Shown one piece after another: positions 1 through 63,508 of a stretch of DNA of 64,000 nt. Position 1 is the first letter of the stretch, and every line of letters starts with the position of its first letter. Source of the DNA: Candidatus Poribacteria bacterium (lineage in GTDB: Bacteria; Poribacteria; WGA-4E; WGA-3G); NCBI GenBank assembly GCA_965242965.1, contig OZ251518.1, forward strand, positions 3,520,001 to 3,584,000, in the 5' to 3' direction. The notes under the pieces are model-generated. The model saw nothing but the letters and a program-made list of their open reading frames with translations. It was not told the DNA's origin and made no database searches. Made by a program: the position numbers and the translations under genes.

Positions 1-519
1 CCGATAGCACGGCCCTTTGCCCGGATAAAAGACAGTTACCTGTCCCTCAAATTGGAAGATGCTCCCGTGCACGATAGGTTTACCTAACATCACGGAGGCA
101 TCGTTGAGGAGATATCGCGTCGGCAAGTTATCGCAGCCGTCCACAATCAACTCGTATTGCTCCAAAATGCGGAAGGCATTTTCAGAGGTGATGCGTTCGT
201 TATGCGGAATCACCTTGACATCAGGGTTCATCTCGGTAATAGTAGCTGCGGCAGACTGCGTTTTCGGGATGCCGATATCGCTGGTGCCGTGCAAAATCTG
301 CCGTTGCAAATTGCTCCTATCTACGACATCGTCATCAATGATACCCAGCGTGCCGACACCTGCCGCCGCCAGATACACACCCACCGGTGAGCCGAGTCCA
401 CCTGCACCGATGAGAAGCACTTTTGATTCAAGCAGGCGCGTCTGCCCCATCCCGCCTACTTCTTTGAGGATGATATGCCGACTATACCGCTCAATCTGTT
501 CGTTGCTGAAGTTAAACAT
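1..519 (-). CDS. moeB: MoeB/ThiF-family adenylyltransferase (3' end runs off window)
   Basis: Manual translation from ATG at 519: MFNFSNEQIERYSRHIILKEVGGMGQTRLLESKVLLIGAGGLGSP...DRSNLQRQ...DGCDN...GPCYR. These are classic E1-like motifs. Not in the supplied ORF track because it is truncated. Confidence 0.9.
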   Translation of the reverse strand, partial: MFNFSNEQIERYSRHIILKEVGGMGQTRLLESKVLLIGAGGLGSPVGVYLAAAGVGTLGIIDDDVVDRSNLQRQILHGTSDIGIPKTQSAAATITEMNPDVKVIPHNERITSENAFRILEQYELIVDGCDNLPTRYLLNDASVMLGKPIVHGSIFQFEGQVTVFYPGKGPCYR

Positions 520-557
520 TTTTTGTTGTTCCTATCGGATGAGTCAATCGGTTAAAT

Positions 558-856
558 TGAGGGTGTTTCATAACTCGCCCAACGTCGCGAGGACAGTCAC
601 CGGTGCTGCGGTAAAAAAACGCCGCTCCTTCACGTAGGGCGTGGGCCCTCGCATGCCACACGCGCATGCGAGCGGGTTTCCCTCGCCATGCGTTTGGCTG
701 TCAGACCGCATCCCCTCTGTAGGTCAGGATCGCCTGATCCTGACTCGTTTGTGATCAGGCGATCACAAACTACAGAGGTGGGCCCAATGCCTGCCGGTAT
801 TCGCCCTCCCTCCAAGGGCGGAATAAATACCGAAACGGTGTTATGAAACACCCTCA
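558..856. repeat. REP cluster bounded by 16-bp inverted ends (MITE-like)
   Basis: TGAGGGTGTTTCATAA at 558-573 and its reverse complement at 841-856, with GTAG-palindrome modules inside. Confidence 0.8.
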
Positions 857-857
857 G

Positions 858-1436
858 TTAACCGGTTAAATTGGCGCGGAGCTCCGAAAGCGGTTTATCG
901 GAATTCGCGGAAATCCGAAGAGCGAACCGTTCGCGCGCGTCCTCCGAAGTCCGTTTCACCGTAAAAGCATCGTTGCCATACATCTGCTGCAGCACGGGAG
1001 TGAGAACTGCCTGGAGGGTATCCGCTGTCGCCTGCGTATTCGGCGCGAGATTGCGGTTGTTCACCATAAATAGGAGATTCGCGCCGCTGAAATGCACGGC
1101 ATCTTCCAATTCGGCGGACGCTTCCAACTGTTCGCATTTGGACAGTACTTCCGCAAGTGCCTGGCGAATCTTTTCGGCGTTGTCGCCTTTGACGGCGTGC
1201 TTCCGGTTGTAGAGGAAGCCCGGCTGATGCCACGCGTTGTCAATGCTGTAGTTAGCGCGCTTGGAAATCAGCAGCACGCCCGGTCCCGCGTCGACATGCG
1301 AATAATCGGCGTAGTTGAGATAGTCATCTTGCTCACCTTCGTCCATCCAGCGGTTGAAAACCTTGATGAAGTCGGTGTAGTTGATACGGCTGTCTTCGGT
1401 GGTAAACACCTTGATATTAATCTGTTGTAAATCCAT
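858..1436 (-). CDS. Hypothetical protein (192 aa)
   Basis: Protein-like ORF upstream of and co-oriented with moeB; no motif recognised. Confidence 0.75.
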   Translation of the reverse strand: MDLQQINIKVFTTEDSRINYTDFIKVFNRWMDEGEQDDYLNYADYSHVDAGPGVLLISKRANYSIDNAWHQPGFLYNRKHAVKGDNAEKIRQALAEVLSKCEQLEASAELEDAVHFSGANLLFMVNNRNLAPNTQATADTLQAVLTPVLQQMYGNDAFTVKRTSEDARERFALRISANSDKPLSELRANLTG

Positions 1437-3284: not shown

Positions 3285-3740
3285 TGAGGGTGTTTCATAA
3301 ATCCCCGTAGGAGAGACCTCCCGGTCTCGATGCAATAGAGCGGCGAGCCTACCGGGGCGGCGGCAGAAAGCCCCTTCATCGTAGGGCGAGGGCCTGTCCC
3401 TCGCCATCGTCGGCGCAATCCAACGCTCGCGGGGGACAGGCCCCCGCACTACAAAAAACGTCTCTTAGGTCCGTAGGACCTTAATGTCTATAGCATGCGC
3501 GAACGCGAAGAATCCTAAGGTCCTTTAGGTCCTTAATAGTTTTTGACATGCGGCGCGTTTTTTATTAAGGACCTAAAGGACCTTGAAAACGTAACGACAC
3601 GTGTATCTATAGACATGTAGGTCCTAAAGGACCTAAAACGTCCCCTCTTGACGCTGGCCAACGCGGGGCCTGTCCCCCGCGCTACGGGAACATCGAGACC
3701 AGGAGGTCTCTCCTACGGGGAGCCCTCGCCTTACGGGCAC
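3285..3740. repeat. Modular REP cluster
   Basis: TGAGGGTGTTTCATAA end, GTAGGAGAGACC module, GTAGGGCGAGGGCCTGTCCCTCGCC / GGGGGACAGGCCCCCGC doublet, and the ~170-bp AGGTCC/GGACCT/TCTATAG palindromic module. Confidence 0.85.
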
Positions 3741-11184: not shown

Positions 11185-12052
11185 ACCTACGCGGGGGACA
11201 GGCCCCCGCGCTGCGGAAAAAAACGGCACGTCATCGTAGGGCTTGGGCCCTCGCATGCCACACGCGCATGCGAGCGGGTTTCCCTCGCCATCGTCCGCGC
11301 TACGCAAAAAACGTCTCTTGTTCTCTTCAGGTCCGTAGGACCTAAAAACATAACTTGACGATGGAGATCGCGGGGGACAGGCCCCCGCGCTACGATGAAA
11401 AAAACGGCGTGCGTTACCGTAGGGCGAGGGCCTGTCCCTCGCCATCGTTCTCGGCCACGGACACTCGCGAGGGACAGGCCCCCGCGCTACGGTAAAAAAC
11501 GGTATGTCATTGAACGCTCGCGGGGGCCTGTCCCCCGCGCTACCGGGAAAAAACGGCACTTCACCGTAGGACCTTAATGTCTATAGCACGCGCGCCCGCC
11601 AAGAACGCTAAGGTCCTTTAGGTCCTTAATAGATTTTGCCAGGTCCACGCGTTTTTTATTAAGGACCTAAAGGACCTTGAAAAGGTGCCTGCACGTGTTT
11701 CTATAGACATTAAGGACCTAAAGACCTAAAACGCCACCGTTTGACGATGGAGATTGCGGGGGACAGGCCCCCGCGCTACGGGGAAAAAACGGCACTTCAC
11801 CGTAGGGCGTGGGCCTGTCCCTCGCAATCGTTCGGGCACCCCAACACTCGCGGGGGACAGGCCCCCGCCCTACGGGAACATCGAGACCGGGAGGTCTCTC
11901 CTACCGGTGTTGCATCGAGATTCGAGGTTTCTCCTACCGGAAGGAATCGGGCCCATCTCTGTAGTTCGGGAGCGCCCGCTCCCGAACGGGTCAGGATCGG
12001 GCGCTCCTGAACTACAGAGGTGATGACGTTGCGCGATTTATGAAACACCCTA
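11185..12052. repeat. Modular REP cluster between convergent genes
   Basis: All module types are present. The terminal TTATGAAACACCCTA overlaps the sulfatase stop codon. Confidence 0.85.
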
Positions 12053-33644: not shown

Positions 33645-34440
33645 ATAAGGGAATTTCATATTTCGATGTCTTTTTGGTAGGAGAGACCTCCCGGTCTCAA
33701 TTTGTCCGTAGCGCGGGGGCCTGTCCCCCGCGATCGCAGCATGGCGAGGGACAGGCCCTCGCCCTACGGTGCGGGGGGTGGCGTTTTCGCGATCGCTGCA
33801 TGGCCTACGATGAAGGGGGGAGGCGTTTTTTTTTCGTATCGCGGGGGGGCTCGGATGCCAGACGCGCATCCGGGCTGGTTTCCCCCGCGAGTTCCATCGT
33901 CATGATGTGTGTTTCCCTCTCTGTAGTTTGTGATCGCCTGATCACAAACAGGTTAGGATCAGGCAATCCTGACCTACAGGGCCTGGCGCGAGAACGATGA
34001 CGAGGGCCTGTCCCTCGCCATCGTTCGCGCTGCGGAAAAACCGTCTCTTGTTCTCTTCAGGTCCGTAGGACCTGAATGTCTATAGCAGCCGATACGCAAA
34101 ATGCTCTAAGGGCCTTTAGGTCCTTAATAGCTTTTGCCAGGGCCGCGTGTTTTCTTATTAAGGACCTAAAGGACCTTGACAACGGTACGACACGTTTTTC
34201 TATAGACATGTAGGTCCTAACGGACCTAAAACGCCACCTTGTGACGATGGAACAACGCGGGGGACAGGCCCCCGCGCTCCGGTAAAAAACGCCATCCCCT
34301 CACCGTAGGGCGGGGGCCTGTCCCTCGCCATCGTCCGCGCAATCCAATCCTCGCGGGGGACAGGCCCCGCGCTACGGATGCATCGAGACCAGGAGGTCTC
34401 TCCTACCGGGATGCATGGATACCCGGCGCGCCTACCGGCA
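33645..34440. repeat. Modular REP cluster inside the split rrn locus
   Basis: All module types are present. Confidence 0.85.
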
Positions 34441-52244: not shown

Positions 52245-52825
52245 TTGAGGGTGTTTTATAACTCGCTCAACGTTGCGGTGACAGGCCCCGCGCTACGGTA
52301 AAAAAACGCCTCTCCTTTACGTAGGGCGAGGGCCTGTCCCTCGCCATGCAGCGATCGCGGGGGACAGGCCCCCGCGCTACGGGAAAAAACGGCACTTCAC
52401 CGTAGGGCGAGGGCCTGTCCCTCGCCATGCCACATGTGCATGCGAGCGGGTTTCCCTCGCCATCGTTCGCTCGCCGGAAAAAACGTCTCTTGTTCTCTTC
52501 AGGTCCGTAGGACCTTAATGTCTATAGCACGCGCGCCTGCAAAGAACGCTAAGGTCCTTTAGGTCCTTAATAACTTTTGCCATGCGGCGCGTGTTTTTTA
52601 TTAAGGACCTAAAGGACCTTGAAAACAGCGCGACACGTGTTTCTATAGACATTAAGGACCTAAAGGACCTAAAACGCCACTGTTTGACGATAGAGATCGC
52701 GGGGGACAGGCCCCCGCGCTACGATAAAAGACGGTTCTTGAGAAAACGCGGGGGACAGGCCCCCGCGCTACGGGAACATCGAGACCAGGAGGTCTCTCCT
52801 ACCGGACAATGGGGAGCCCTACGTT
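52245..52825. repeat. Modular REP cluster
   Basis: TGAGGGTGTTTTATAA end plus all modules. Confidence 0.85.
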
Positions 52826-54502: not shown

Positions 54503-55165
54503 GTAGGAGAGACCTCCCGGTCTCGATTTCTTCGGGTAGGAGAGACCTCCCGGTCTCGATGTTCCCGTAGCGCGTGGGCCCTCGGATGCCACACGCGCAT
54601 CCGAGCGGGTTTCCCCCGCGATGGCTCAAGAACCGTTTTTTTTTCGTAGCGCGGGGGCCTGTCCCCCGCGATCTCCATCGACAAGAGATGACGTTTTAGG
54701 TCCTTTAGGACCTACATGTCTATAGAAACACGTGCCGGTCCCACGGCAAGGTCCTTTAGGTCCTTAATAAAAAACGCGCCGCATGGCAAAGCCTATTAAG
54801 GACCTAAAGGACCTTAGCATTCTTCGCGTCTGTGCGTGCTATAGACATTCAGGTCCTACAGACCTGAAGAGAACAAGAGACGTTTTTTCCGTAGCGTGAA
54901 CGATGGCGAGGGACAGGCCCTCGCCCTACGATGAAGGGGGACCTTCTGCCGCCGCGGCTCTGGTAGGCGCGCTGCCCTATTGCATCGAGACCAGGAGGTC
55001 TCGCCTACCGGGGAAACGGAAGCGTTTGAGGTTTCACGAAACCATTTTTGACAACAACGAGTTATGAAACACCCTCATTTAACGCTCGCGGGGGACAGGC
55101 CCCCGCGCTACGGTATCATTGAGAGATGCTTGTGGGGGACAGGCCCCCGCGCTACGGTATCATTG
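54503..55165. repeat. Modular REP cluster
   Basis: All modules; TTATGAAACACCCTCA at 55062-55077. Confidence 0.85.
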
Positions 55166-55283: not shown

Positions 55284-56897
55284 ATGATGCGAACGTTTGA
55301 AACCCGAGGCCCTGTGAATCCCGAAAAGAATTACGTTGTTCGCCGAGAAGGAGAGTTGGCGGATTTCATCTGGCGCGTGAAAGAGGGCCGCTATATCGTC
55401 ATTTTCGCGCCGCGGCAGACAGGCAAGACGACCTTTTTCCGCGCCGCTCTCCAAACTCTCGCAGCGGAAGAACCTACCTATTTTCCGATCGAACTGAATT
55501 TCCAGGTGTATAAAAACGTCGCGCCGGATGCATTCTACGGCCGCGTTTACAGAAAGATTCGTCAGGAAATTGAGGGCGTTTTCCACCAGCGCGGGCAGCC
55601 GCTGTCTGATGCGCTAAGTCAATTTTTGGGGAACGGCTCGGTGCATGATCATCTTTCGCTGCTAGACTTCTTTGAGAACCTCGGAGGCCTCCTAGCACCG
55701 CATCGGGTTGTGCTCATCATTGACGAGTTTGATGGCATCCCATCCGCCGCCGTGAGCGATTTTCTGTATGCACTCCGTGACATCTATCACTCCAAGGCGG
55801 CTACTTCCTGTCCCTATAGCGTGGGCATTGTTGGGGTCAAAAACATTACGCAATTGAACTATGACAGGTCCATTTCGCCGTTCAATGTCCAAGATGAGTT
55901 TGGTTTGCCGAACTTCACGGTTGCACAGGTGGCGGAGCTCTTTGGACAATATACGTCAGAAGTCTGGCAGTCGTTCGCGCCAGAGGTTATTCAGACACTG
56001 CATCGGCAGACAGGTGGCCAACCGTTCCTTGTCAATCGACTTGCGCAAATGCTCACGGAGGAAATGGATATTCCAAATTCGGAGCCAATTGCGATGACGC
56101 ACTTCGCATCCGCACATCGGCAACTCCTTGAAGAAAGGAACGTCAACATCACACACCTGACTACCAATATCCGCAGGAATCCGCGCTTTCAACGCCGCCT
56201 GATGCAAATTACCTCCTACGATGAAAGCATCGGCTTCAATCTAGATGACGACATCCTTAGTGAACTTGCCACCTACGGTGTCATCGTGAGAGGCGAGGAC
56301 GGTATGTGTGAGATTGCCAACCCGATTTATCTCTACCGTATCCTACAAACGTTCCAACCGCTAATAAACGGACTTGAGGAAGAATACTACCCGCAAGACA
56401 CAGGCAACGGGTATCGCGATTATCTCACGCCGGCGGGACAGATTCATATAGTCGGGCTGCTGGATAATTTCCGAGATTTCATTGCGCGCGCGGGGTTCCG
56501 CATCCTAGCAGTGCCGGAAACACCACGAGAATACGTTGGACAGTGCCTCTTGTTTGCCTATCTGGACCAGTTTGTTCGGCAGGTGCGCGGCACTATGCAT
56601 CTAGAAGTGCAGACCGGGCGCGGCCGGGCAGATCTCGTCATTTTCCATCAAGGACAAAAACATATCGTGGAGACTAAACTCTGGCAAGGCGAAAAGAGTT
56701 ATCAAGTTGGTAAAGCGCAACTGTTCGCCTATCTCAAATTGGAAGCCGCGATGGAAGGCTACTATGTCGTCTTCGACCATCGCAGGCATCCTGTGCCGCG
56801 CGTGGAGACAGAGACGTTGGATGGGGTGACGCTTCGGAGTTACGTTATTCCGGTGGTGCAGGAGATGCCTTCTAGCGCGAGAATTGAAAACGCATAA
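55284..56897 (+). CDS. AAA-like ATPase with C-terminal PD-(D/E)XK-like nuclease domain
   Basis: Walker A APRQTGKTT, Walker B LIIDEFD, GQPFLVN; C-terminal GRADLVI...VETK...QLFAYL; AGGAGG RBS; promoter TTGACA-18bp-TACAAT at 55211-55240. Confidence 0.82.
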   Translation: MMRTFETRGPVNPEKNYVVRREGELADFIWRVKEGRYIVIFAPRQTGKTTFFRAALQTLAAEEPTYFPIELNFQVYKNVAPDAFYGRVYRKIRQEIEGVFHQRGQPLSDALSQFLGNGSVHDHLSLLDFFENLGGLLAPHRVVLIIDEFDGIPSAAVSDFLYALRDIYHSKAATSCPYSVGIVGVKNITQLNYDRSISPFNVQDEFGLPNFTVAQVAELFGQYTSEVWQSFAPEVIQTLHRQTGGQPFLVNRLAQMLTEEMDIPNSEPIAMTHFASAHRQLLEERNVNITHLTTNIRRNPRFQRRLMQITSYDESIGFNLDDDILSELATYGVIVRGEDGMCEIANPIYLYRILQTFQPLINGLEEEYYPQDTGNGYRDYLTPAGQIHIVGLLDNFRDFIARAGFRILAVPETPREYVGQCLLFAYLDQFVRQVRGTMHLEVQTGRGRADLVIFHQGQKHIVETKLWQGEKSYQVGKAQLFAYLKLEAAMEGYYVVFDHRRHPVPRVETETLDGVTLRSYVIPVVQEMPSSARIENA

Positions 56898-56914
56898 GCC
56901 TGGCGCGATACGCT

Positions 56915-57270
56915 CCCCGGTAGGAGAGTCCTCCCAGTCTTGATGCAATAGGGCGGCGCGCCTACCGGGGCCGCGGCAGCAGAAGGTCCCCCTTCATCGT
57001 AGGACGAGGGACAGGCCCTCGCCAGCGTCCGCGGAATCCAACGCGCGCGGGGGACAGGCCCCCGCACTACGAAAAAAACGTCTCTTAGGTCCGTAGGACC
57101 TTAATGTCTATAGCACGCGCGCCCGCGAAGAAGCCTAAGGTCCTTTAGGTCCTTAATAGGTTTTGCCAGGGCCGCGCGTTTTGTTATTAAGGACCTAAAG
57201 GACCTTGAAAACGGGCCGACACGTGCTGCTATAGACATGTAGGTCCTAAAGGACCTAAAACGTCCTCTTG
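56915..57270. repeat. Modular REP cluster
   Basis: Same modules; closely similar to 3305-3645. Confidence 0.8.
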
Positions 57271-57476
57271 GGGAGTGCATGCTAAATCCATCGCCGGCTC
57301 GCGGGCGCACTTCTACTGCGCGTGGTCCTGTTTTCGCGAAAATGGAATTCCCTCACATTTTTAAGTTGACATTTTAACAGAAAATGTGATAAAATACCAT
57401 AAATGGCAAAGAGGAAACCGGTTGACTCACCGTAGGTTGCTTGGTTTCCATTTTTCTTCAAAGGAGGTGAAAACTT

Positions 57477-58196
57477 GTGAGTGTGGATACGATATTCCCC
57501 AAACTATTTGAACTGCTACCAGATGCAGGTCATTTATTAAGTCTTCAACCGGAGGAACTTGCCGGACCGCTTTTAATCTCTTTAGATGGCAGCGATTACA
57601 TAGAGCCGTTTGCGATTATATCCTTCGATCTTATCCAGAAATACCCGGCTAAGCATGAACAGGACATTCTCTTTGCGCTCATGGAAGCTTGGCAGTGGTT
57701 GGAACGTGAAGGGTTTGTTGCGCCTAGACCGAACGGATCTTCCACCAGGTCCTACTTCGTTACCAGACGCGGCAAGGCCATTGAGACCACCGAGGCTTTA
57801 GAGGTTTATCGCAAGGGAAACCTGTTGCCTAAACGTCAACTTCACCCTACAATCGCTCAAAAGGTATGGTCGCTGTTTTTACGGGGTGACTATGATATTG
57901 CTGTTCTTCAAGCCTTTAAAGAGGTTGAGGTTGCTGTCCGCGAAGCATGCGGATATGCAGACACGGAGTTAGGGGTTAGTTTAATGCGTAAAGCGTTTGG
58001 CGACAAAGGCCCTTTGACAGACCTTAAGCAGCCGCCTGCAGAACGGGAGGCGAGAGCGCATCTATTTGCTGGCGCGATTGGGGCATATAAGAATCCCGGT
58101 AGTCACCGAGATGTTGACCCTACAGCGGAAGAGGCGGCTGAAGTTATAATTTTCGCAAGCCATCTTCTTCGGATTGTTGATTCGCGCAGAGAATAG
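57477..58196 (+). CDS. TIGR02391 (Ymh-like) family protein
   Basis: EAWQWLEREG, LHP.I, AFKEVEVAVR, GVSLMRKAF, LFAGAIGAYKNPGSHR motifs; AAGGAGG RBS. Confidence 0.8.
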   Translation: MSVDTIFPKLFELLPDAGHLLSLQPEELAGPLLISLDGSDYIEPFAIISFDLIQKYPAKHEQDILFALMEAWQWLEREGFVAPRPNGSSTRSYFVTRRGKAIETTEALEVYRKGNLLPKRQLHPTIAQKVWSLFLRGDYDIAVLQAFKEVEVAVREACGYADTELGVSLMRKAFGDKGPLTDLKQPPAEREARAHLFAGAIGAYKNPGSHRDVDPTAEEAAEVIIFASHLLRIVDSRRE

Positions 58197-58745
58197 GTTT
58201 CGCGGACTGAAAAGTCGGGACTGGGACGTGCCTACTACAAGATAAGGGTTGGCAGCAACCCAAATCTGTTCCACATTTCTTAATGGATAACAGATTTCGC
58301 GAAAATTGCATCCCTTCACATTTTTTACTGGACATTTTAACAGGAAATGTGGTATAATTCGCTAAAGTTTGGCAGTTGATGCCGCACTCCACACTCGGCG
58401 CGCCGTTTTCGAGGTGTCTCTCGCGCAAAGATGGTTGACGCAAGTTGTGGATTTTCGATAAAATATGAGTGCAGATGACATATCAACGAAAAACAGCATT
58501 AGTTTTTTCTTGCTATTTTTCGCGCGTTTATGATATGCTATCTGATACGTTATCAATTACGTGTGTTCGTGGCGGCCGCGTCGATAGGCGGTACTCGGAC
58601 ACTACCGATACGGATGAACTCGCACACAACGACGGAGGCAGTCAATTTGCAGACGAAATCCGTGGCATGCGGTGCTGCAACTCCTGAAGAGTTTGTTCGT
58701 GAGACAGACTATTTTTCACGTAATCTGGAAGCCGCAGGAACTGAT

Positions 58746-61346
58746 ATGACACCTGAAGGAATAGTGGTCGAGGAAGTGGTTAACTACTTCTCCGAGACGA
58801 AGTTCCAAAAGTTCTCGATCGAGACAGAATATCCGATTCAGATGGGCTCTGATAACCGGAGAGCCGATGTTGTGCTTATAGATAGCGCGGATAACGCGGA
58901 TAACCTCGTCGCCATTGCTGAATGCAAGCGGGTCGGGGTGGAAGGGCAGGGACTGGATCAGTTAAGGTCTTACCTCAGCGCAACGGATACGCGTTTCGGG
59001 ATATTCGCCAATAGCACATATCCTGCTGCTTGGGATTTTTACGAGAACTTGGGGCGGAATCAGGTTAGCCTTATGACGCGCTCTGAGTTTGAGGAGCGAG
59101 TCGTTAACGGTGAAAATAACCGTGCTCAACCAGATCCGCAATCGGTTCGTTCCGGTTCAACTAAACATTTTGTCAATAAGGGAGGGACTATGAAAATTCG
59201 ACCGACCCTGTATGTCGGCCTTGGGACAACAGGGACAAAAATTCTCAATCATCTCCGAGATCTCAATCATCAAGAATACGGTCAAGCAGGGCTTCCCATT
59301 TTCAGATATATCTCAATTGAAACGGATGGTAGCAAGGATGGGAAAGTATCCTCAATTGACGATGATGGCATCCGCATTGAGTATGATAAAGATGGTGTAC
59401 CCGTAACCGTTGAGTCCGAACTTCGCCCGACTCCTTACGAAGTTAATCACGTGATCCATACACCTATTCCCAATCCAGAATCCATTCATGAGAGGATAAA
59501 TCCGAAGAGTTCAGTGTATGACAAGCACCTCGCCGAATGGTTGGACGCAAATATATTGAACCTTGATGCTGTGCGCCGACCTGGCGGTGCTGGCAACATC
59601 CGGATGGTAGGCCGACTCTCACTCTGGGAAAATTGGAATCAAGGGAACCTCGTGTATCAACGTTTCAGGACAGCCTATGATGCTATTTGGGAAGCAGACA
59701 ATAAGCAACAAGCGAGTACCTTCCTAGAACGTCATTTTGGAGCGGAAGTTACCGTTGATGAAAAAAACCGCAATGTCTTTATCGTCGGTACTCTATGCGG
59801 TGGAACATGTAGCGGAATGCTCGTTGATATTGCTTACTATTTCCGGCAGATTGCAAAAGAAGCTTCAACGATTAATACCTACGTTTACGGACTTTTTACG
59901 ATGCACGACGAAGCACTCGCGTCAGGGGGTGACTCTGCAGTCTTGTTAGCGAACTGTTATGCTAGCCTCGTTGAGTTGGATTACTATAAACGTGATGCAA
60001 CTGAGTATCGTATCACTCTTCCTGGTGGGACTGACTTCCGCACCAAAAATTCCCCATTTGATATTGCTACTTTTCTTTCAGCAACCAATATGGCCGGTGA
60101 AAGATTTGTCGATCCAAATGGCTTATTCGTTCAAGATGAACTTGATCGGATGGTAGCCGCGGACTTGTTTGTTCGAACTCTCGGAATGGATGCCCTCATT
60201 GACGCTGATCTCGTTAATGCGACTGCCGCTTCAGATCTCCAGTTTGAAGCTTTAAGGAACGTAGGTGGCGAAACAGAAAAAGGCTCTTTCGTGCAGTACA
60301 TGTTTAGTTCTGGTTTGAAAAAAGTCTGGTTGCCTAAGGAGAAAATTGTTAGGTTGGCTGCGACGGAATTCATTAAACACCGTCGCTCGGAATGGAGAGA
60401 AAGTCAGCCTGCAACTTCATCCGATTCCGCCGTGTTGGTTCAGGACATTTTAAGAGGCATCAGGCGGAGTCTCAATAAAACGCTGACTGAGCCGCTTACG
60501 CCGTTAACGAACAATCTTGATGGCATCAACTCGGATAACTATCTGCCTGAAGCTCAGAGATGCTTAACGGCTTTTATCAATGGGGGTGAACGCTACAACC
60601 TCGTTAATGGAAATAGACTTGATTCCTTGACACAAGCTGTTGGAATCCTTAAAGATGCGGTCCGCAGTTTTGAAGGCACATCCCAGATGTTTCCTAAGAA
60701 GGTTTATCTCACGCGAATTGAGGAACTTCTGCAAGCCGAATTGAGGGATTCCAAATACCCGGATAACCTTGATTCGCGGGACGACATTCTAATATTTATC
60801 ACTGAAGCGGAGAACAGTGCCGAGCAAAAATCCAGGTTTGGCCGAGACACGTTCAATCTGCCAGGTTTCAAGGGGGCAATCTTGCAACAACAAGAGGAGT
60901 TGAACACGCGATTGATTAACTTCTTTGTTAAGGGTATTCTGAATGACCTGCGGAGCGAAGTGCGAAAATGGCTCCAGAGTCTGGAAAGGGAAATAAACGA
61001 GATTGAATCAAAATTCAACTCGGTTATTTGGGTCTTTGACGACCCGTCCGAAATTGAAAAGCAGGCAGCGGATGACTTTGTTTCAGAAATTCTTCAACGT
61101 GAGTCTAGCACTCCAAGTGTTGAGGAACTGATTCGCGTATTGCGCAAGACAGAAGCTGCTGGTCTTCATTGGCACATACGGAATGAGTTGAGACCTGCTT
61201 TTAACGGTATCGCGCCAGATCTAATGCTAGAATTTGACGAAGAAGCTGTCAGACGTTCTCGTCCCTATCAGACTTTTACGCCTAACTACATGGAAAACTA
61301 TAGGCTAAGGTTTGAACGGAGCGGCGGCGAGATTCGGCTATTTTGA
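58746..61346 (+). CDS. HsdR-N-like nuclease domain fused to a tubulin/FtsZ-like (Tubulin_2) domain
   Basis: EYPIQMG...RADVV...AECK...DQLRSYL, then VGLGTTG, GAGNIRMVGRL, GTLCGGTCSG, ANCYASLVEL. Confidence 0.75.
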   Translation: MTPEGIVVEEVVNYFSETKFQKFSIETEYPIQMGSDNRRADVVLIDSADNADNLVAIAECKRVGVEGQGLDQLRSYLSATDTRFGIFANSTYPAAWDFYENLGRNQVSLMTRSEFEERVVNGENNRAQPDPQSVRSGSTKHFVNKGGTMKIRPTLYVGLGTTGTKILNHLRDLNHQEYGQAGLPIFRYISIETDGSKDGKVSSIDDDGIRIEYDKDGVPVTVESELRPTPYEVNHVIHTPIPNPESIHERINPKSSVYDKHLAEWLDANILNLDAVRRPGGAGNIRMVGRLSLWENWNQGNLVYQRFRTAYDAIWEADNKQQASTFLERHFGAEVTVDEKNRNVFIVGTLCGGTCSGMLVDIAYYFRQIAKEASTINTYVYGLFTMHDEALASGGDSAVLLANCYASLVELDYYKRDATEYRITLPGGTDFRTKNSPFDIATFLSATNMAGERFVDPNGLFVQDELDRMVAADLFVRTLGMDALIDADLVNATAASDLQFEALRNVGGETEKGSFVQYMFSSGLKKVWLPKEKIVRLAATEFIKHRRSEWRESQPATSSDSAVLVQDILRGIRRSLNKTLTEPLTPLTNNLDGINSDNYLPEAQRCLTAFINGGERYNLVNGNRLDSLTQAVGILKDAVRSFEGTSQMFPKKVYLTRIEELLQAELRDSKYPDNLDSRDDILIFITEAENSAEQKSRFGRDTFNLPGFKGAILQQQEELNTRLINFFVKGILNDLRSEVRKWLQSLEREINEIESKFNSVIWVFDDPSEIEKQAADDFVSEILQRESSTPSVEELIRVLRKTEAAGLHWHIRNELRPAFNGIAPDLMLEFDEEAVRRSRPYQTFTPNYMENYRLRFERSGGEIRLF

Positions 61347-62003
61347 TATTTGCACACCAACCAGCACAAATCGGAAGATGCCTCTAGGCTGAGGTCGAGT
61401 GCACAGGTTGACTCCAAAGATTTCCCAATCCGGAATCTCCGCGTCCTTTATCAGATGGAAGCCGGTTATACTCTGGATGACCTTGGGGTAGTTGAACACC
61501 TCAAAACCGAATATGATACCGCTCTGTCAAAATACATAGAGCACGGAGGTTTTCCTATCCATATTCATAAGGATCCGGACGAGTTCAACGTAGATGCAAT
61601 TCACCGGGCCGCAGAAGTTGAGACTCTCTGGAGAGCTATTCGAGAATTACTCGGTTTAATTCGTGAGTCATATCCCGATCGATTCGGGCATGTCTTACTA
61701 CCTAATGGAAGCCTTAACGAAAATAGCGCATTCCCTGTTGGCGAATTGGCAGCTAGAATTCAAGGAAAAAGAATTGCATCGACTTTTATTGATGACAACG
61801 CGGGACACGAGGAATTGGCCCGAAATGCCGAGGCATGTGCTAACTTTGTTAGTGCGACCCGGACCGAGTTTAAAAATCTTCAAGAGGAATCGCCTTCCCT
61901 CAGTGCTCTGATTAACGAGTTCAACGCACAGATTGAGGATAACGTGGCACGTCAAAAGAGCGAACAATTCTATGATGAGCTGCTAAAGTCTCTTGAAAAA
62001 TGA
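61347..62003 (+). CDS. In-frame continuation of the tubulin-like gene after a TGA (C-terminal part)
   Basis: Same frame as 58746-61346; no clear RBS or ATG; LYQMEAGYTL...Y...PIHIHK resembles tubulin-like C-terminal regions. Confidence 0.55.
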   Translation, partial: YLHTNQHKSEDASRLRSSAQVDSKDFPIRNLRVLYQMEAGYTLDDLGVVEHLKTEYDTALSKYIEHGGFPIHIHKDPDEFNVDAIHRAAEVETLWRAIRELLGLIRESYPDRFGHVLLPNGSLNENSAFPVGELAARIQGKRIASTFIDDNAGHEELARNAEACANFVSATRTEFKNLQEESPSLSALINEFNAQIEDNVARQKSEQFYDELLKSLEK

Positions 62004-62113
62004 GTCTAGTCTTCTCGCTGAGCCGCCGAAACGGACACGCCGCAGGACTCTCCTTTCCCTCAATTCGCGAGCGGAAAGGAGAGTCCCCGCGCGGCACCGA
62101 TTGCCGAACCGCC

Positions 62114-63508
62114 ATGGAAACCCCACTCCAAATCGCTTTTGATAAAGGCACCCTCATCCTCCAACACATCCCAGAAGCACTCCAGCCGCACTTGGCAGAA
62201 CTCCGCTGGGACGAGCGCACGCTCACCTATCGCGCACCTGCCTATCGCTATCGACAGATTATCTCGCAACTGCTGGCGCATAACATCCCCTATCAAGATA
62301 ATGCACGCCAGTTTACCGTCGAACCGTTTGTGCTCCAAAAGACGTTGCCTCCCTATCCTTACCAGACCGAGGCAGTTGACGCATGGCACGCCAACGGCAA
62401 GCGCGGCGTGATTAGTCTCCCTACAGGGGCCGGCAAGACCTTCATCGCCGTGATGCTTATCGCCGATACGCAACGTCCCACGCTTGTGCATGTGCCCACC
62501 ATCGATCTGATGCATCAGTGGTATACTGTGCTTCGCGAGTATTTCGGCACCGAGGTGGGGCTTTATGGCGGCGGTTATCACGAATTGGCATCGCTCACCG
62601 TGACGACGTATCAGTCGGCAGTCATGCACGCGCCCCATTACGGCAATCGATTCGGTCTGGCGATTTTTGACGAGTGCCATCACCTCCCCGGTCAGCAGTA
62701 TCAGTATACGGCTATCAGTAGCATCGCGCCGTTTCGGCTAGGTTTAACGGCAACGCCTGAACGGACAGATGGCGGGGAGACCCGGTTGTATTCCCTCGTC
62801 GGCGAGTGTTGTTATGAGGCGAAGGTGCAGGAGCTCTCTGGCAAGACGTTATCGCCGTATCGCGTCGTCACGATTGCGGTTGAGATGGAGGACACGGAGC
62901 GGGTGCGTTATGAGGCGGCGCGCCTCACTTATCTCGATTTCCTCAAGAAGGCGAACATTAATATGGGCGCGGGACGTGGATGGCAGACGTTCCTCTGGAA
63001 ATCGTCTCAAACGGTGGCGGGACGCGAGGCGTTCAAGGCGTATCTAACACAGAAGCAGCTCAGTTTCGCATCGACGAAGAAGCAGGAGTGGGTGTGGAAG
63101 TTAATCCAGCGGCACCGCGGCGACCGGATGCTCATTTTCACACAGGATAATAATACCGCGTATCAACTCGGCGTGCGGTTTTTTCTGCCGGTGCTGACGC
63201 ATCAGACGAAGTTGAAGGAGCGGAACGCCTTTTTGGAGAATTTCCGCAACGGCACGTATTCTATCCTCGTTACGTCGAAAGTGCTCAATGAGGGGGTGGA
63301 TGTGCCGGAGGCGAACGTGGCTATCATCGTATCGGGGAGTGGGAGTGTGCGCGAACATGTGCAGCGGTTGGGACGTATCTTGCGGAAACGTGAGGGGAAG
63401 CAGGCGGTGCTTTACGAACTCATCTCCAAGGAAACGGGTGAACATTTTGTGAATAAACGGCGGCGGCGACATCATGCTTACGAAGGACCTGGTTCGGTAT
63501 CACATTGA
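62114..63508 (+). CDS. XPB/Rad25-like SF2 helicase
   Basis: YQTEA, LPTGAGKT, DECHH, GLTATP, LNEGVDVP, QRLGRILR motifs. Confidence 0.9.
   Translation: METPLQIAFDKGTLILQHIPEALQPHLAELRWDERTLTYRAPAYRYRQIISQLLAHNIPYQDNARQFTVEPFVLQKTLPPYPYQTEAVDAWHANGKRGVISLPTGAGKTFIAVMLIADTQRPTLVHVPTIDLMHQWYTVLREYFGTEVGLYGGGYHELASLTVTTYQSAVMHAPHYGNRFGLAIFDECHHLPGQQYQYTAISSIAPFRLGLTATPERTDGGETRLYSLVGECCYEAKVQELSGKTLSPYRVVTIAVEMEDTERVRYEAARLTYLDFLKKANINMGAGRGWQTFLWKSSQTVAGREAFKAYLTQKQLSFASTKKQEWVWKLIQRHRGDRMLIFTQDNNTAYQLGVRFFLPVLTHQTKLKERNAFLENFRNGTYSILVTSKVLNEGVDVPEANVAIIVSGSGSVREHVQRLGRILRKREGKQAVLYELISKETGEHFVNKRRRRHHAYEGPGSVSH

Follow-up and report, generated by a model that had tools for sequence, protein, structure and literature searches.

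A restriction-type nuclease head on an FtsZl1 tubulin-like GTPase, interrupted by a premature stop codon, in a Candidatus Poribacteria genome

The closest described relatives of the gene analyzed here are the FtsZl1 proteins (Pfam Tubulin_2), in which an N-terminal FtsZ-like GTPase is followed by a long helical or coiled-coil middle and an alpha-helical C-terminal domain, as outlined by Makarova & Koonin (PMC2875224), who proposed membrane remodeling as their role. The words "nuclease" and "restriction" do not occur in the text of that paper. Planctomycete Ser/Thr-kinase-FtsZl1 fusions (PMC2875224; PMC9871819) likewise place an enzymatic domain N-terminal of a complete FtsZl1. Kaur et al. 2020 (PMC7159879) predicted that tubulin homologues with a helical C-terminal domain are assembly-forming parts of NTP-dependent conflict systems with swappable effectors. 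Here we describe a gene from a sponge symbiont, Candidatus Poribacteria, that encodes a restriction-type PD-(D/E)XK nuclease head followed in frame by an FtsZl1 body. It lies on the plus strand at 58746-62003 of a 64,000-nucleotide stretch of contig OZ251518.1; this stretch is called the window, and its numbering is used throughout.

Relative to the FtsZl1 family, the window protein adds 146 residues of nuclease head and linker in front and stands alone in a cargo slot; its C-terminal sequence blocks are common to operonic FtsZl1 proteins. The majority pattern of FtsZl1, a partner operon with vWA, OmpA, or P-loop GTPase genes, is not found at the window locus. The original prediction for this DNA had remarked that vWA genes usually lie beside FtsZl1 and were not to be seen here, and the Pfam neighbors (AAA_35, Hypoth_Ymh, XPB, and DUF790) agree. 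Compared with the planctomycete kinase fusions, the head here is of the PD-(D/E)XK type, the lineage is Poribacteria, and the head is common to many non-tubulin bodies. We tentatively read the intact gene (1084 residues, as in homologue P0003) as a stand-alone, horizontally mobile conflict protein with an anti-invader or abortive-infection role, and we give this reading slightly less than an even chance.

Domain architecture of the fusion gene

An open reading frame (ORF) on the plus strand at 58530..61346 encodes 938 residues and is followed in the same frame by 61350..62003 (217 residues). The gene is divided as follows.

58746..59102, plus strand: nuclease head, PD-(D/E)XK of the HSDR_N_2 type, 119 residues (Pfam PF13588)
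59103..59189, plus strand: linker, of low model confidence, holding the Shine-Dalgarno (SD)-like AAGGGAGGG at 59178-59186
59190..60377, plus strand: tubulin/FtsZ-like GTPase domain (Tubulin_2 = FtsZl1; Pfam), from the internal ATG at 59190
60378..61343, plus strand: helical middle region (stalk), where the family varies most
61344..61346, plus strand: premature in-frame TGA at codon 867, where relatives have an invariant Arg
61347..62003, plus strand: cut-off C-terminal part, with family-wide blocks and the C-terminal domain; natural stop TGA at 62001-62003

Pfam finds both domains in the 938-residue ORF: HSDR_N_2 (PF13588) at residues 83-170 (E-value 4e-9, 37 bits against a cut-off of 25) and Tubulin_2 (PF13809) at residues 227-616 (E-value 4.1e-44, 151.7 bits against a cut-off of 27, profile positions 1-352 of 356), the latter also in a whole-genome scan. 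This agrees with the original prediction of an HSDR_N domain and a tubulin-like domain in one frame, and the motifs quoted there (RADVV, AECK, QLRSYL, GLGTTG, GAGNIRMVGRL, and CGGTCSG) are present. The same prediction treated 58746-62003 as one open frame and did not mention the in-frame TGA at 61344-61346, which ends the protein at codon 867. A start at 58746 is likely: homologues P0003, P0004, and P0006 begin at the same Met. The stretch upstream of it is not consistently coding, because two 1-nucleotide indels separate it from the sister species G066, and upstream starts at 58530 or 58617 were rejected on account of these indels.

The head carries E4, D41, E59-x-K61, Q72, and Y76; across 124 aligned heads, E4 is conserved in 99% and D41, E59, K61, Q72, and Y76 in 100%. 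Because the full PD-(D/E)XK catalytic set is kept, an active nuclease would be the simplest reading. The secondary structure of the head in the full-length model of P0003 comprises a helix at 3-15, strands at 23-26, 40-46, and 51-57, a helix at 66-77, and a strand at 81-85; tubulin matches fill the structure lists obtained with this model, and a PDB sequence search with the head gave no match at E ≤ 1.

At E ≤ 1e-10, 227 clusters of proteins 210-2000 residues long contain the 119-residue head, with 366 candidates scored and 120 listed. Among these 120 clusters, 23 carry Tubulin_2, and most others are proteins of ~720-800 residues in which the head is followed by coiled coils and transmembrane stretches, one of them with a weak DUF4407 match. 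The head is N-terminal in 109 of 123 proteins. Further bodies behind it include DprA/SLOG, OB-fold tRNA_anti_2, and DUF4268, and paralogues of the head in the same genome are fused to DprA/SLOG (L054:5121-6437, with the head C-terminal), DnaJ_C (L055:5121-6182), and Macro (L056:5099-6355). The genome also holds three tandem paralogous HSDR_N_2 + N6_Mtase genes (Eco57I-like, Type IIG-type) of 930, 932, and 704 residues at L057:4770-13055 (G000:C1:3776769-3785054).

Two unrelated nuclease folds, HSDR_N_2 and T5orf172, hold the head position on similar bodies, and we therefore favor the head as effector and the body as regulator or sensor. The opposite assignment, in which the head is a sensor or DNA anchor that binds and perhaps nicks foreign or damaged DNA and the bodies do the work by sequestering DNA, disturbing the membrane, or blocking division, seems unlikely to us. 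It would account for the same head on such different bodies as Tubulin_2, transmembrane/coiled-coil, DprA/SLOG, Macro, OB-fold, and DUF4268. It would also suit the proposals that tubulin and HSP70 are assembly-forming effectors (Kaur et al., PMC7159879) and that FtsZl1 remodels membranes (PMC2875224). The four catalytic positions, however, are 99-100% conserved in the 124 heads. Binding-only derivatives of the PD-(D/E)XK fold usually lose their catalytic residues. Moreover, the unrelated T5orf172 nuclease that occupies the head position at the same slot in another relative (G069) fits the swapping of effectors better than the swapping of sensors.

For the body, we built an AlphaFold2 model of P0003 from a 25-row alignment (mean predicted local distance difference test score (pLDDT) 68.1, predicted template modeling score (pTM) 0.52), in which pLDDT falls below 50 at linker residues 120-145 and at 826-913. 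Foldseek places gamma-tubulin, CetZ2, and tubulins at the top with prob 1.00; the best E-value is 4.2e-4 (gamma-tubulin 9g3z_l), and CetZ2 (4b45_A) reaches a TM score of 0.46 on the target. VIA alignments to tubulins and CetZ give Z 17-18.4 over 265-313 aligned residues in the model range 148..947, among them tubulin 9cpc_KP (Z 18.4, root-mean-square deviation (rmsd) 3.4 Å, 272 aligned) and CetZ 3zid_A (Z 18.1, rmsd 4.6 Å, 282 aligned). The Foldseek comparison, a check that the original prediction had suggested, thus supports the tubulin fold on which that prediction depended. The GTP-binding loops T1 (GLGTTG) and T4 (the signature variant CGGTCSG) are invariant in 25/25 fused homologues, and a T3-like GAGN.RM.GR stretch is also conserved.

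Secondary structure in both models, that of full-length P0003 and that of the C-terminal half folded alone, gives a body organized as GTPase, long helical middle, and alpha-helical C-terminal domain, with an all-helical stalk. The C-terminal half alone (pLDDT 70.2), compared with 48,161 PDB representatives, matched generic helical bundles only, at a best Z of 9.3, which is below the meaningful level for helical proteins. A PDB search with a 25-sequence profile returned seven matches, all coiled-coil-like and with a best E-value of 0.15, and the ESM Atlas gave no usable match. The C-terminal domain itself, the last ~135 residues, is confidently modeled (pLDDT 80-93). This part holds the blocks NLRVLYQMEAGYTLDD and HIHKDPDEF, of which the patterns L..YQ(E/M)E.G(F/Y)..DDL and H..PD.F are conserved also in operonic and distant FtsZl1 proteins.

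The premature stop codon

The nearest homologues, P0003 (94% identical over the covered part) and P0004 (1089 residues, 92%), read ...EIRLFRYLHTNQHK... where the window reads ...EIRLF(stop)YLHTNQHK..., and the Arg at the stop position (R866) is invariant in the alignment of 25 fused homologues. We compared contigs of four public runs over 60300-62300, a comparison that can hide rare variants. Runs X1, X2, and X5, from two studies, match the window exactly and have T at 61344 at a depth of 21-96, while run X6 (labeled sponge metagenome) holds a ~98%-identical strain (33 differences in 1767 bases) with C at 61344, giving CGA for Arg. Since three runs of two studies keep the T while the X6 strain reads C, the stop reflects a genuine C-to-T substitution specific to this strain (CGA to TGA), not an error of assembly. 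Between the window and the X6 strain, 60300-62003 differs by 14 synonymous and 16 non-synonymous changes, the stop included, numbers that tell neither age nor constraint. Recoding of the TGA, as selenocysteine or under an altered code, was considered and rejected, since Arg stands at this codon in relatives, the gene itself terminates with TGA, and table 11 gives full-length products for other genes.

The lost part holds the family-wide FtsZl1 blocks and the confidently modeled C-terminal domain, and the truncated product is therefore probably inactive. The window copy is probably a young pseudogene, fixed in its strain. A different possibility is that the gene functions in two pieces in this strain, the 866-residue product associating with a 217-residue product re-initiated at TTG 61350, four bases after the TGA. 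Consistent with this, the stop falls in the low-confidence segment between modules (pLDDT <50 at 826-913), the downstream frame is fully open and its product 97% identical to P0003, the 3.2 kb hold no other disruption, and the TGA allele alone is seen in the contigs of three runs. We nevertheless regard it as very unlikely. The Arg is invariant in all 25 homologues, none of the listed homologues is split at that site, and an SD-like sequence was not seen before the TTG; in addition, rare variants would be hidden in the contigs, and the substitution counts against X6 are uninformative on constraint. An expression look-up among 19 runs found no RNA dataset listed.

Two further observations concern variation in such genes. 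Several FtsZl1 paralogues with one to three internal stops each occur in the Poribacteria genomes G067, G044, G128, G137, G072, and G171; decay of such genes seems common. A second contig of run X6 matches 61429-61471 and 62015-62066, with 583 other letters in place of the intervening 543, and thus carries a different C-terminal module (61429-62066) flanked by conserved blocks.

The fused family, its junction, and its genomic slot

A homologue search over 5.8 billion proteins listed 120 matches. Among these are 22 clusters of 1063-1145 residues with both PF13809 and PF13588, down to ~50% identity; three further clusters of 1097-1100 residues cover the head at 48-52% identity, and 20 clusters of 918-1004 residues lack the head. 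The named relatives are Candidatus Poribacteria assemblies. Across 176 genomes of the phylum, one per species, the complete fused form occurs in two, this genome and G164, and a close head-less form occurs in G053. These results bear on two statements in the original prediction. The recent accidental fusion offered there as an alternative is rejected in view of the 22 clusters with both domains and the three that cover the head, and the search for the same architecture likewise shows that homologues do not always encode the domains separately.

More broadly, one might suppose that the whole fusion family is a functionless accident, arising from a lost stop codon or from mis-assembly. The junction is indeed translated from an apparent former ribosome-binding site, and the window copy is broken. 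This explanation is contradicted by the fused clusters, which extend to ~50% identity and, with the three more, to 42-44%, by the invariant catalytic and GTP motifs with their near-invariant catalytic residues, and by the agreement of independent assemblies from several runs; we consider it extremely improbable.

At the junction, the SD-like AAGGGAGGG precedes the internal ATG at 59190-59192, which confirms the strong internal SD-ATG that the original prediction had placed at the tubulin start. The internal Met (M146) is invariant in 25/25 fused forms, and all 10 of the head-less homologues inspected begin with MKIRPTLYVGLGTTG or MEQSLKIRPT... at the internal Met of matching fused forms. An SD-like motif stands before this Met in both fused genes examined at the DNA level (window AAGGGAGGGACTATG; G164 AGAGGTGCGAATATG). 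Because head-less forms begin at the same Met and the SD-like motif is kept, the head and linker are joined in frame to a whole FtsZl1 gene, exactly at its native ribosome-binding site and start codon. The suggestion that both fused and nuclease-free isoforms could be made gains support from the head-less homologues and the invariant Met, while the isoform itself, from an internal start, is plausible.

In the wider FtsZl1 family, a set of 1.84 billion representatives searched by phmmer with the GTPase domain gave 1851 proteins at E ≤ 0.001; among the best 150 of these, an N-terminal extension of ~145-150 residues occurs only in P0003 and P0018, both of the fused family. Accordingly, FtsZl1 normally begins with the GTPase, and the nuclease head is a lineage-specific addition. 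Effector-type heads do occur elsewhere in the family, as in P0305 (2019 residues), which combines TIR_2, a protein kinase, and two Tubulin_2 domains and is thus another effector-headed FtsZl1. A search of JGI metagenome contigs gave 16 relatives, none with the head.

Identity to the window differs strongly by module. Against P0005-type homologues it is 84-88% in the head, 74-96% in the linker, ~57% in the GTPase, 36-38% in the stalk, and 41-45% in the C-terminus; over all fused homologues with bodies ~57% identical, the linker ranges from 74 to 100%. P0010, P0016, and P0017 share a C-terminus 78-81% identical to that of the window despite a stalk at 36-38%. The window head is nearer to the head of P0049 (92%), which has a membrane/coiled-coil body, than to that of P0003 (87%), although the body of P0003 is nearly identical. 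On a body tree (quick maximum likelihood, 51 rows; P0015 and P0045 were missed by the motif pattern and left out), fused forms are intermingled with head-less ones, with a minimum of five changes of state. One head-less entry, P0046, is from a 2988-nucleotide contig and may be cut at its 5' end. From these differences between modules, together with the intermingling, it is evident that head, body, and C-terminus were recombined between relatives; the stalk is the fastest-evolving part.

The surroundings of the gene have the following features.

55284-56897: AAA_35 gene with a weak Cas4/NERD-like tail (Pfam)
57477-58196: Hypoth_Ymh/TIGR02391 gene (Pfam)
58329-58358, plus strand: sigma-70-like promoter match 1, TGGACA-18-TATAAT with TG, 11/12 matches
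58435-58464, plus strand: sigma-70-like promoter match 2, TTGACG-18-TAAAAT, 10/12 matches
58465..58745, plus strand: non-coding leader, aligning to the sister species G066 with two 1-nucleotide indels
59102..62112, plus strand: segment swapped between sister species, an FtsZl1 body here against a membrane/coiled-coil body and a 302-residue gene in G066
62000-63508: XPB gene (Pfam)
63474 onward: DUF790/Bax1 gene (Pfam)

The neighbors named in the original prediction (AAA-nuclease, TIGR02391-like, and XPB-DUF790) are thus as described. Its remark that the region is AT-rich also proves correct: 59102-62003 has a guanine-plus-cytosine (GC) content of 45.8%, against a genome mean of 54.2% (standard deviation 1.9 over 3-kb windows), and 0.05% of 3-kb windows lie at or below 46%. 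The sister species has colinear flanks 87-90% identical by blastn (2-hydroxyacid dehydrogenase gene, AAA_35, and XPB-Bax1) and an orthologous leader and head at 83.8% (window 58294-59101). Two window segments have no counterpart there, 56468-58293 (AAA_35 tail, interspersed repeat, and Hypoth_Ymh) and 59102-62112 (the FtsZl1 body). Where the window has the latter, G066 carries the same head on a membrane/coiled-coil body (788-residue ORF) plus the 302-residue gene, and its cargo has 44-47% GC. Other relatives carry different cargo upstream of XPB: a T5orf172 (GIY-YIG-type) head on a coiled-coil/DUF4407-type body plus a 319-residue gene in G069, a 1680-residue Type ISP restriction enzyme in G068, and AAA_35 genes with a head remnant in G067; T5orf172 heads match the PADLOC defence models PDC-S57 (4e-33) and PD-Lambda-1. 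Because relatives carry different genes upstream of XPB, the site is a variable low-GC cargo slot upstream of XPB-Bax1 and not a conserved multi-gene system. The "defence-like cluster" of the original prediction therefore does not hold as a system. Hypoth_Ymh as an obligate partner was likewise rejected, being absent from the G066 and G164 loci.

The fusion gene has its own promoter-like sites. A 72-nucleotide module with a near-consensus promoter is present twice at 82% identity, at 57332-57403 before Hypoth_Ymh and at 58295-58366 before the fusion gene. We rejected the leader as a specially conserved element, as leader and head are 83.8% identical to G066 against 86.9-89.9% for the flanking orthologous genes. 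The leader matches no Rfam family (over 56800-59300, Rfam gave only two chance-level eukaryotic matches, inside an interspersed repeat), and its fold is not meaningfully better than shuffles (z-score -1.84).

Several further observations concern the slot and its surroundings. Beyond the window, after Bax1 (L058, G000:C1:3584001-3596000), follow three tandem AAA_35 paralogues (546, 546, and 540 residues), a TPR gene, an N6_N4_Mtase-Mrr_cat fusion, an APH-type kinase, and an ABC-F gene, and the AAA_35 gene at 55284-56897 brings these paralogues to four. XPB homology starts from residue 38, at ~62113, and the XPB of relatives has nothing corresponding to the 37 codons at the start of the XPB ORF. 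Public contigs break at 62113-62142, and short contigs lie on 62122-62290 at a depth of up to ~19,000 in X5, though the stretch is single-copy in the genome. The ~350-bp interspersed repeat, with a copy at 56912-57274, has hundreds of blastn matches chromosome-wide on both strands at ~74-94% identity, with other copies in the window near 3303-3646, 11513-11733, 34052-34241, 52475-52676, and 54686-55014.

The genome also contains a second, intact FtsZl1 gene (1141 residues; L053:1879-17260, G000:C1:2515878-2531259), in an operon-like row with a 928-residue Hsp70/MreB-like protein, OmpA, a MotA/ExbB-like gene, and several unannotated genes, an arrangement reminiscent of the tubulin-HSP70 systems that Kaur et al. 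predicted. The genome contains two canonical PF00091 genes as well, by which cell division is covered. These genes bear on a cell-biological explanation, in which a DNA-binding head would tether a tubulin-like cytoskeletal or membrane-remodeling element to the chromosome or a mobile element, in loose analogy to TubZ-type DNA positioning. The company of the paralogue (OmpA, MotA/ExbB-like, and Hsp70-like genes), one head-less homologue beside housekeeping genes, and the membrane remodeling proposed for FtsZl1 (PMC2875224) would fit such a role. However, the fused gene is patchy (2/176 genomes) and of atypical GC, DDE transposase fragments flank the copy in G164, the site is occupied by another allele in the sister species, and the stalk is strongly diversified. 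The gene is also dispensable in the window strain, because the stop is fixed, and canonical tubulin-family genes are present. We therefore find this explanation quite unlikely.

Proposed function and comparison with known systems

Our reading of the intact gene as a conflict protein follows from a five-part pattern: the catalytic head is intact, the NTPase has a hypervariable region (the stalk), the distribution is patchy and mobile, the composition is atypical, and alleles replace one another in a slot where other relatives carry restriction enzymes and defence-type nucleases. The defence or conflict role suggested in the original prediction is thereby supported indirectly, by GC content, patchiness, cargo slot, mosaic evolution, and invariant nuclease residues, while no PADLOC model covers the protein. 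The polymer-activated or filament-tethered nuclease put forward in the same prediction stays a hypothesis. By analogy, the best reading would be that the tubulin-like GTPase body controls the nuclease head. In the mechanism we propose, the stalk would recognize something and set off GTP binding and self-assembly of the FtsZl1 body, and assembly would bring nuclease heads together so that DNA is cut. Co-assembly of head-less subunits, translated from the internal start, may set the threshold. We propose head juxtaposition by GTP-dependent assembly because the tubulin superfamily offers an analogy, as do nucleases in which cleavage of both strands takes two catalytic domains.

Several points weigh against a conflict role and the mechanism attached to it. 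The window copy is truncated and so cannot speak for current function. Model confidence for P0003 is moderate (pLDDT 68, pTM 0.52) and below 50 for the segment around the stop. A T7-type loop was not identified and no NxDxxD/E-type motif was recognized in the body, the candidates being the family-wide D487 and the DD of the YQxExGxxxDD block; Makarova & Koonin (PMC2875224) did not find T6-H7 in FtsZl1 and left polymerization open. The FtsZl1 papers cited here report no experiment on any FtsZl1 protein. PADLOC-DB 2.0.0 covers only the head (MTase_I, 5.7e-8) and nothing of the tubulin body or the paralogue. A search of viral contigs gave 46 pattern matches and no relatives. The neighbors are independent cargo, so that guilt by association is moderate, and the head-less G053 gene (L009) adjoins the housekeeping genes ffh-trmD-rnhB-UPF0102. 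Finally, the head is also found on DprA, DnaJ_C, Macro, and OB-fold domains, which would be equally compatible with a part in binding or targeting DNA.

A more specific version of the conflict role is possible, if doubtful: intact alleles may represent the first immune effector on a tubulin-superfamily GTPase, in which stalk-triggered assembly would switch on the head, the head-less isoform would be a co-polymerizing regulator, and promoter, head, and linker would form a portable 5' cassette recombined in frame onto the start codons of different body genes. NTPase switches that control immune effectors include STAND, AAA+, dynamin-like, and McrB proteins. If the gene is a conflict protein, tubulin-like GTPases would join them. 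Whatever its role, the locus is a clear case of modular evolution, with one head in at least 227 clusters, exchanged between bodies at an orthologous site, and grafted exactly at a start codon. FtsZl1 is a widespread branch of the tubulin/FtsZ superfamily, and a natural nuclease fusion gives it an easily measured output (DNA cleavage, toxicity, or phage protection), through which assembly and its trigger become directly testable. The main value of the fusion is thus an experimental handle on the FtsZl1 branch, for which an intact allele is needed, the window copy being broken.

Among described systems, the N-terminal nuclease domain of Type I (HsdR), Type IIG, and Type ISP enzymes belongs to the same Pfam family (PF13588) and has the same catalytic motif as the window head, and the genome's own Type IIG-like genes place HSDR_N_2 in front of N6_Mtase. 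In contrast to these enzymes, the partner module here is a tubulin-like GTPase and not a superfamily 2 helicase or methyltransferase, and HsdM and HsdS are not adjacent. An HsdR-type helicase (ResIII + Helicase_C) is absent from the 938- and 217-residue products; XPB is a separate gene, kept in relatives with other upstream cargo. NCBIfam has no match to either product. A literature search gave no nuclease-FtsZl1 fusion and no tubulin-like anti-phage protein; the supplements of PMC2875224 and PMC7159879, which lay outside the search, could list such architectures.

The DO-GTPase/GAP1 systems with tubulin and HSP70 (PMC7159879) resemble the window gene in their tubulin homologue with a C-terminal helical domain, and the L053 paralogue stands beside an Hsp70-like gene. 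The window locus differs in that GTPase, GAP1, and HSP70 genes are missing among the six neighboring proteins scanned and the effector is fused directly to the tubulin homologue. The T5orf172-headed candidates (PDC-S57 and PD-Lambda-1), found at the same slot in G069, offer a parallel in which a nuclease-type head sits on a coiled-coil/DUF4407 body; both the nuclease fold and the body differ from those of the window, and they are an analogue for head swapping only. In McrBC, assembly of a GTPase licenses a PD-(D/E)XK nuclease; the GTPase, McrB, is of the AAA+ class, and a separate subunit supplies the nuclease. The working principle we propose would be similar, although the GTPases are not homologous and we claim no membership in that system. 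FtsZl1, the kinase fusions, and a predicted conflict role are already in print.

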